From: Escherichia coli
GTDB lineage: Bacteria; Pseudomonadota; Gammaproteobacteria; Enterobacterales; Enterobacteriaceae
Length of the DNA: 64,000 bases
Strand: one strand, 5' to 3'
NCBI RefSeq assembly: GCF_003334305.1
Contig: NZ_QOWS01000009.1
This document shows positions 10,025 to 10,179 of the stretch, piece after piece. The notes under the pieces are model-generated. The model ran no database searches. It was not told where the DNA came from and saw only the letters and a list, made by a program, of their open reading frames with translations. Made by a program: the position numbers and the translations under genes. Numbering within the stretch: the stretch's first letter is position 1; each line of letters opens with the position of its first letter.

Positions 10025-10044
10025 TCAGCGAAACGTTTCGCTGA
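10025..10044. promoter_or_regulatory. Perfect 20-bp palindrome TCAGCGAAACGTTTCGCTGA; candidate RbsR operator at the rbsD 5' end
   Basis: Perfect inverted repeat read directly, immediately upstream of the rbsD start; LacI-family operators are palindromes of this type. Confidence 0.7.
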
Positions 10045-10179
10045 CCCGCAGTTTAATCCTGACTGAGTTGGGAAAACCATCGTGACGTTACGGAAATGTG
10101 ATCAACCTCGAAACGTTTTACATGGTGATTAACCATGAAAACAAAAACGCCCCCTTATGGAGAAAGGAGGCGTCTGGCG

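Follow-up and report, generated by a model that had tools for sequence, protein, structure and literature searches.

The window, that is, the whole 64,000-nucleotide stretch of DNA analysed here, is Escherichia coli chromosome in which kup, rbsDACBK and rbsR all lie on the minus strand. Read along that strand, the order is kup (10180-12048), a terminator, an intergenic region of 166 bp and rbsD-rbsA-rbsC-rbsB-rbsK-rbsR. The identities of Kup, RbsD and RbsR were confirmed by NCBIfam equivalog models, RbsR scoring 697 bits against NF007743 (cut-off 531), and the RbsR of the window matches the 'Ribose operon repressor' of PDB entries 9NY7/9NY8 with E = 6.5e-221. The 400 bp around a 20-bp palindrome in front of rbsD, designated O1 below, are found with 100% identity in many complete E. 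coli chromosomes, where kup and rbsD are the annotated features at that place. Across the region two bases differ from K-12 MG1655, and at 10048, 4 nt upstream of the palindrome, K-12 has T where the strain of the window has C. The features that the text refers to in this region are the following:

4145-5137, minus strand: rbsR, the cognate LacI-family repressor gene and the last gene of the operon (NF007743; PDB 9ny7/9ny8).
9594-10013, minus strand: rbsD (D-ribose pyranase), the first gene of the operon (RefSeq annotation; NF008761, residues 1-139).
10020-10023, minus strand: Shine-Dalgarno sequence of rbsD, GGAG (invariant or near-invariant across species).
10025-10044, not assigned to a strand: O1, or rbsO, the primary RbsR operator, a perfect 20-bp palindrome TCAGCGAAACGTTTCGCTGA (sequence, co-crystal oligonucleotide, conservation).
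10050-10055, minus strand: candidate sigma-70 -10 hexamer TAAACT (conservation pattern).
10094-10115, minus strand: CRP-type 22-mer CGTTTCGAGGTTGATCACATTT, centre 10104.5 (core match, conservation, distance to the -10).
10105-10124, minus strand: O2, candidate RbsR-type box CATGTAAAACGTTTCGAGGT, centre 10114.5 (conservation in 81/81 sequences).
10145-10175, minus strand: intrinsic terminator of kup, which bounds the rbs control region (terminator scan).

Two further observations concern the distal part of the operon. The rbsR open reading frame, as called mechanically, starts with a TTG codon and encodes 330 aa, equal to the length of the K-12 protein, and its 3' end overlaps a convergent hsrA-like open reading frame (2752-4179) by 35 bp, as in K-12. 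The small RNA RbsZ is annotated in K-12 at the 3' end of rbsB (3937045-3937278) and, by synteny, would be expected at about 6086-6319 on the minus strand of the window.

The palindrome TCAGCGAAACGTTTCGCTGA consists of two inverted 10-nt arms that are 100% complementary and meet without a gap. It is centred at 10034.5 and has a 16-bp core at 10027-10042; the sequence-only reading had given both its sequence and its coordinates exactly. It is the longest perfect palindrome of the window and, on its own, moderately unusual, as arms of at least 10 nt appeared in 9 of 200 shuffles, and the 20-mer has no other match in the 64 kb even with three mismatches allowed (0.01 expected). The inverted repeat contains the central CG step and the CGAAAC half-sites of an RbsR operator, perfect over 10+10 positions; it stands in front of the ribose genes, and the cognate rbsR is encoded nearby. 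A 2025 preprint (bioRxiv 10.1101/2025.04.02.646877; PDB 9NY7/9NY8) describes RbsR crystallised on an rbsO oligonucleotide, GTGGGTCAGCGAAACGTTTCGCTGATGGAG, which contains TCAGCGAAACGTTTCGCTGA and is, base for base, the K-12 sequence of O1. In Serratia, RbsR gel-shifts a probe from upstream of rbsD and ribose abolishes the binding; for the relief of RbsR binding by D-ribose in E. coli, that work cites Mauzy & Hermodson 1992. O1 does not differ from the rbsO of the E. coli rbsDACBKR operon: the 20-bp sequence is identical, the locus is the same and so is the cognate repressor gene. The proposal that the palindrome is a LacI-family operator recognised by RbsR was borne out by its identity with the co-crystallised rbsO, by the presence of rbsR in the same operon and by an essentially invariant 16-bp core, unchanged in 80 of the 81 sequences compared below. 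With physical binding taken from the literature, we regard it as virtually certain that O1 is an RbsR operator. This is textbook and structure-level knowledge already, and confirming it shows only that the first-stage reader recognises real regulatory DNA. That reader was mistaken in one respect, namely in placing the palindrome directly against the rbsD start. What the palindrome touches is an in-frame ATG further upstream (10025-10023), which is missing from other genera (the consensus there is GCTAGTGGAG), and the true start, the ATG at 10013-10011 (RefSeq K-12 b3748; NCBIfam RbsD model residues 1-139), is found 12 nt further on, so that the palindrome precedes it by 11 nt and the Shine-Dalgarno GGAG (10023-10020) by 1 nt.

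For the conservation analysis, rbsD loci were taken from 80 species-level Enterobacteriaceae genomes (RbsD 85-99% identical) and the 230 bp upstream were aligned, which gave 81 sequences with that of the window. Invariant positions make up 46 of the 166 intergenic ones and fall mainly in three runs: (i) 10027-10041 within O1, GCGAAACGTTTCGCT, (ii) 10108-10118 in an upstream motif, AAACGTTTCGA, present in 81/81, and (iii) 10097-10103, GATCACA. Single invariant positions are scattered over the Shine-Dalgarno sequence and a TAnnnT hexamer, and the mean identity in the rest of the intergenic region is 0.64. An alignment-free check agreed, as both AAACGTTT cores were found in all 81 sequences at a spacing of 78-80 bp. 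The perfect 20-mer itself is confined to Escherichia, the other genera carrying AGCGAAACGTTTCGCT with different flanks.

The third of these runs belongs to what is very likely a CRP site at 10094-10115. The TGTGA at 10097-10101 had been offered as a possible CRP half-site, and the comparison supports it: on the minus strand the TCACA is invariant, as is the whole GATCACA, the N6 spacer is free to vary, with its four variable positions 41-83% identical among the 81 species, and a conserved -10 lies 52 bp away. The core TGTGA-N6-TCACA is matched at 8/10 positions; the promoter-proximal half is consensus and, with its flank, perfect (GATCACATTT), whereas the distal half, TTCGA, is weak and common to O2. 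The match alone is not above chance, since with up to two mismatches this core occurs 27 times in the window versus 28.8 expected. Elsewhere in the window, a perfect CRP core TGTGAATCGAATCACA is found at 60136-60151. Nothing but tnaC is annotated in the 301 bp around it (60000-60300), and the core presumably represents the CRP site already known from the promoter of the tryptophanase operon.

The hexamer downstream of the CRP site varies among species as TAAACT, TACACT, TAAAAT and TATAGT, keeping T1, A2 and T6 as a sigma-70 -10 predicts, and the distance from CRP centre to -10 centre is 52 bp in 62 of 83 sequences. The same 52 bp separate -61.5 and -9.5 at lac P1. From this spacing we infer a transcription start at about 10043 (+/-2), on the upstream edge of O1. 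Since this start would lie 7 nt after the -10, the CRP centre would be at -61.5, a class I position, with the centres of O1 and O2 at approximately +9.5 and -71.5, respectively. A consensus sigma-70 scan of the region returned no promoter, as is common where a promoter depends on an activator and has a poor -35. Neither rbsD nor its coordinates appear in the supplementary lists of two papers that were consulted for an experimental start. In reporter studies, the activity of the rbsD promoter was linear with CRP reporter activity and rose with added cAMP; it needed approximately 3 times more CRP activity than lac, and rbs was the most cAMP-demanding, and so the lowest-ranked, of six non-PTS sugar systems (PMC4304618). 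This roughly 3-fold higher demand for CRP fits a weak, compromised distal half-site.

The second invariant run lies in the box that we call O2. The upstream motif recurs exactly as CGAAACGTTT at 10109-10118, and the suggestion that it is a half-site holds in a qualified form: the agreement with O1 is limited in E. coli to the centre and the promoter-proximal half, and a near-complete box is present in most other genera. The motif and the TGTGA had been described as lying next to each other. Both are real, but they are not neighbours, for the box and the CRP site share 9 bp and form one overlapping composite, CATGTAAAACGTTTCGAGGTTGATCACATTT on the minus strand, with a box-to-CRP centre offset of 10 bp in 81/81 sequences. 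In E. coli, the centre of O2 is 80 bp upstream of that of O1. Its distal half is degenerate in Escherichia, which has GTAAAACGTTTCGA and is alone in reading GTA instead of the GCG of other genera, where a near-full box GCGAAACGTTTCGA prevails; GCGAAACGTTTCGA or TCGAAACGTTTCGA was found in 75 of the 81 sequences. Over the full 20-mer, an O2 of the GCGAAACGTTTCGA type matches O1 at 17/20 positions, the E. coli O2 at just 12/20. The CGAAAC half thus occurs once in E. coli, and both halves (the 14-mer GCGAAACGTTTCGA) occur in most other genera. The loss in E. coli concerns the CG at positions -6 and -5. Bases at these positions are specific contacts in PurR-DNA structures; for RbsR the comparison made here is one of motifs.

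Taken singly, the weaker motifs are not above chance (CGAAACGTTTCG with up to two mismatches gives 5 matches in the window versus 3.85 expected), and their significance comes from position and from conservation in all 81 sequences. The invariant AAA at 10116-10118 is not part of the CRP 22-mer, and GCG occupies positions 10119-10121 in 93-95% of the 81 species, a pattern that CRP alone does not account for and that an RbsR box does. The O2/CRP composite is, in our opinion, a well-supported conservation signal with a putative function, and O2 looks like a little-noticed auxiliary operator. We consider it fairly probable that RbsR binds O2 in typical Enterobacteriaceae; for E. coli itself binding is rather doubtful, falling somewhat short of an even chance, as its distal half no longer contains the CG by which RbsR boxes differ from PurR boxes.

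As to earlier descriptions, rbsDACBKR has only one annotated RbsR operator (PMC3505978). No description of a second RbsR site or of a CRP-site sequence at rbsD was found in the full texts accessible to us, and rbsD does not appear in the supplementary files of Ravcheev 2014, which were examined for RegPrecise-type lists of sites. The 1992 footprinting or 2013 SELEX work may have shown that RbsR does not protect O2 in E. coli.

A large protein search with RbsD returned close Enterobacteriaceae relatives only, and more distant rbsD loci were taken from PLSDB entries that are in fact chromosomes wrongly labelled as plasmids. In Proteus mirabilis (Morganellaceae), whose RbsD is 60% identical, two boxes are separated by 78 bp and a CRP-like site again overlaps. 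In Vibrio THAF190c both boxes are perfect, fully palindromic ATCGAAACGTTTCGAT sequences, likewise at a distance of 78 bp, the upstream one being overlapped by a CRP-like site at a 13-bp offset. Upstream of rbsD, V. campbellii carries a perfect second box 127 bp away and V. tritonius a weak one 32 bp away, while the remaining Vibrio and Photobacterium loci that were fetched show a single clear box. An odd operator geometry was noticed in Photobacterium DA100, about 100-130 bp upstream of rbsD: RbsR-type half-sites in perfect inverted repeat, CATCGAAACGATTGCGTAATCGTTTCGATG, are split by a 10-bp insert and adjoin a normal-looking box.

The strongest alternative is that the upstream motif is nothing else than the distal half of the CRP site, with no useful RbsR binding, at least in E. 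coli, its resemblance to O1 being a relic or a coincidence. A single operator is annotated, the E. coli O2 agrees with O1 at those 12/20 positions, a quality of match that the window holds at about the frequency expected by chance (the 5 versus 3.85 given above), and the GCG has been lost from the Escherichia distal half as relaxed selection would predict. This reading leaves unexplained that AAAC at 10116-10119 is not needed by CRP and that its AAA is nevertheless invariant and the GCG so highly conserved while the spacer of the CRP site itself drifts; moreover, selection for CRP by itself would not keep so poor a half-site as TTCGA fixed, and the second box is fully palindromic in Vibrio species. 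We consider this alternative plausible without being probable.

It is improbable that the palindrome acts mainly as RNA, as a 5'-terminal hairpin by the Shine-Dalgarno sequence through which translation or the stability of the mRNA would be controlled. The predicted fold does have an 8-bp stem, capped by a tetraloop, at the 5' end, the 55-nt leader folding with a minimum free energy of -11.8 kcal/mol (z = -2.1). Yet this z-score is modest, 6 of 200 shuffles folding equally well, no Rfam match was obtained for the hairpin, and 1-2 pairs are lost if the transcript starts at 10043-10042. Such a hairpin is generic to any transcribed palindromic operator and predicts nothing beyond the operator model, for which there is direct protein-DNA evidence (RbsR-rbsO). 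As the sole function of the palindrome, a hairpin is refuted by the RbsR-rbsO complex.

The least likely reading, to which we give very little credence, is that RbsR bridges O1 and O2 into a repression loop, as tetrameric LacI does with lac O1/O3: the layout is lac-like (CRP at about -61.5, main operator near +10, an auxiliary box upstream) and the 78-80 bp spacing is held in 81 species and is 78 bp in Proteus and one Vibrio, but the 330-aa RbsR aligns only to about LacI residue 310 and is without the C-terminal tetramerisation helix, it is reported to be predominantly a dimer (bioRxiv 10.1101/2025.04.02.646877), a LacI-RbsR chimera (LLhR) shows no dependence on operator spacing (PMC3505978), and, with 10.5 bp to the turn, 78-80 bp amount to 7.4-7.6 turns and put the two operators out of phase. 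Anchoring of each site to the promoter, O1 to the transcription start and O2 to CRP at -61.5, fully accounts for the constant spacing, which therefore gives no argument for an interaction between the two sites.

A third copy of the motif lies within the first gene:

9759-9776, minus strand: copy of the motif in rbsD, CTCCACGAAACGTTGCTC, at codons 80-85 (2-mismatch match).

Its CGAAACGTT occupies 9771-9763 (codons 81-84), and its centre is 269 bp downstream of that of O1. Codons 80-85 read CTC, CAC, GAA, ACG, TTG and CTC, with GAA, ACG and TTG each 100% conserved, and have the lowest synonymous codon entropy of the gene among the 81 Enterobacteriaceae (0.20 versus a mean of 0.73). The motif is broken by amino-acid changes in about 14 species and was absent from the rbsD genes of Proteus, Vibrio, Photobacterium and Aeromonas. 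This copy may represent a weak RbsR site or, alternatively, an RNA element such as a GCAAC/GUUGC stem. Pairing of this segment (rbsD nt 238-255) with the small RNAs DsrA or ArcZ was rejected, the longest complementarities lying elsewhere. For DsrA (nt 17-32), 16 contiguous nt are complementary to rbsD nt 298-313 (9701-9716, minus strand), which agrees with the published DsrA site 'three quarters along rbsD'. The ArcZ seed (nt 65-78) has 14 contiguous nt complementary to rbsD nt 278-291 (9723-9736, minus strand), a position that fits the suggestion, made in a preprint, that ArcZ pairs with the rbsD mRNA.

Two other repeats in the region are probably due to chance. The inverted repeat at 10117-10141, TTTACATGGT / ACCATGAAAA, with 10-nt arms and a 5-nt spacer immediately upstream of O2, is not conserved between E. 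coli strains, one other strain differing from the window. The pair 10017-10028 / 10154-10165, in which the loop of the kup terminator faces the rbsD Shine-Dalgarno sequence over 12 nt (92% complementary), has an extra mismatch in K-12.

The arrangement can be compared with those of other CRP-dependent promoters controlled by LacI-family repressors. In lac, CRP is centred at -61.5, O1 at +11, the auxiliary O3 at -82 and O2 at +401. The rbs promoter resembles it in the predicted class I CRP site 52 bp from the -10 centre, in a primary operator just downstream of the start, in an upstream operator-like box by the CRP site and, possibly, in an intragenic pseudo-operator. It differs from it in that RbsR is a dimer without the tetramerisation helix, in that the 78-80 bp spacing is out of phase and in that O2 is not adjacent to the CRP site but has 9 bp in common with it. 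These differences make looping unlikely and competition with CRP the likelier logic.

Repressor sites that overlap CRP sites are known from CRP-dependent promoters of sugar and nucleoside genes, as in CytR-CRP regulation and at the GalR operator OE of gal, and at rbs, too, a LacI-family box and a CRP site are interlaced upstream of the promoter. CytR and CRP bind cooperatively, and simultaneous occupancy is possible for CRP and GalR at OE. In contrast, the two centres at rbs lie on one face at a distance of just 10 bp, so that mutual exclusion would be expected; a contact between RbsR and CRP is not known. Compared with the boxes of PurR (ACGCAAACGTTTGCGT), those of RbsR are the same 16-bp LacI-family palindrome with the central AAACGTTT, but they read CGAAAC where PurR boxes read GCAAAC; O1 conforms to the RbsR type, and so does the proximal half of O2. 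PurR is a paralogue of RbsR that arose from it by duplication, and a PurR-like motif beside CRP has been reported in Vibrio rbsD promoters.

Taken together, we are confident that the region is the control region of rbsDACBKR with O1, the CRP site and the O2 box as its elements, and we propose that it works as follows. In the absence of D-ribose, an RbsR dimer would sit on O1, at roughly +1 to +20 of the predicted transcript, between the -10 and the Shine-Dalgarno sequence; because of this placement, bound RbsR should block open-complex formation or promoter escape. Ribose on RbsR would lower its affinity for the operator and lead to derepression. Transcription would also need CRP-cAMP at 10094-10115, in the predicted class I position at -61.5, where the distal CRP half-site would be weak because it doubles as the promoter-proximal half of O2. 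RbsR on O2 would occupy the same face of the DNA as CRP with centres 10 bp apart, and with this offset it would exclude CRP, adding anti-activation to repression. As O2 is a near-full operator in most Enterobacteriaceae and its distal half has decayed in Escherichia, its occupancy in the latter is probably weak.

It is tempting, if clearly speculative, to extend this proposal to the ribose promoter of Enterobacterales in general. Such a promoter would possess a conserved, unannotated second RbsR operator embedded in the distal half of its CRP site, with RbsR blocking the polymerase at O1 and evicting the activator at O2; the compromise sequence TTCGA would give rise to the highest cAMP demand, O2 would have been partly dismantled in Escherichia, and the intragenic copy would perhaps be a further weak site. 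We rate this synthesis as possible but less likely than not, and the O2/CRP composite as a modest, testable lead. For users of RbsR and rbsO in synthetic biology, O2 would be a second natural operator variant to consider. For the organisms themselves, the composite could explain the unusually high CRP-cAMP requirement of the ribose promoter, and an element shared by RbsR and CRP and fixed in 80 or more enterobacterial species would show compactly how the same DNA can serve a repressor and an activator at once.
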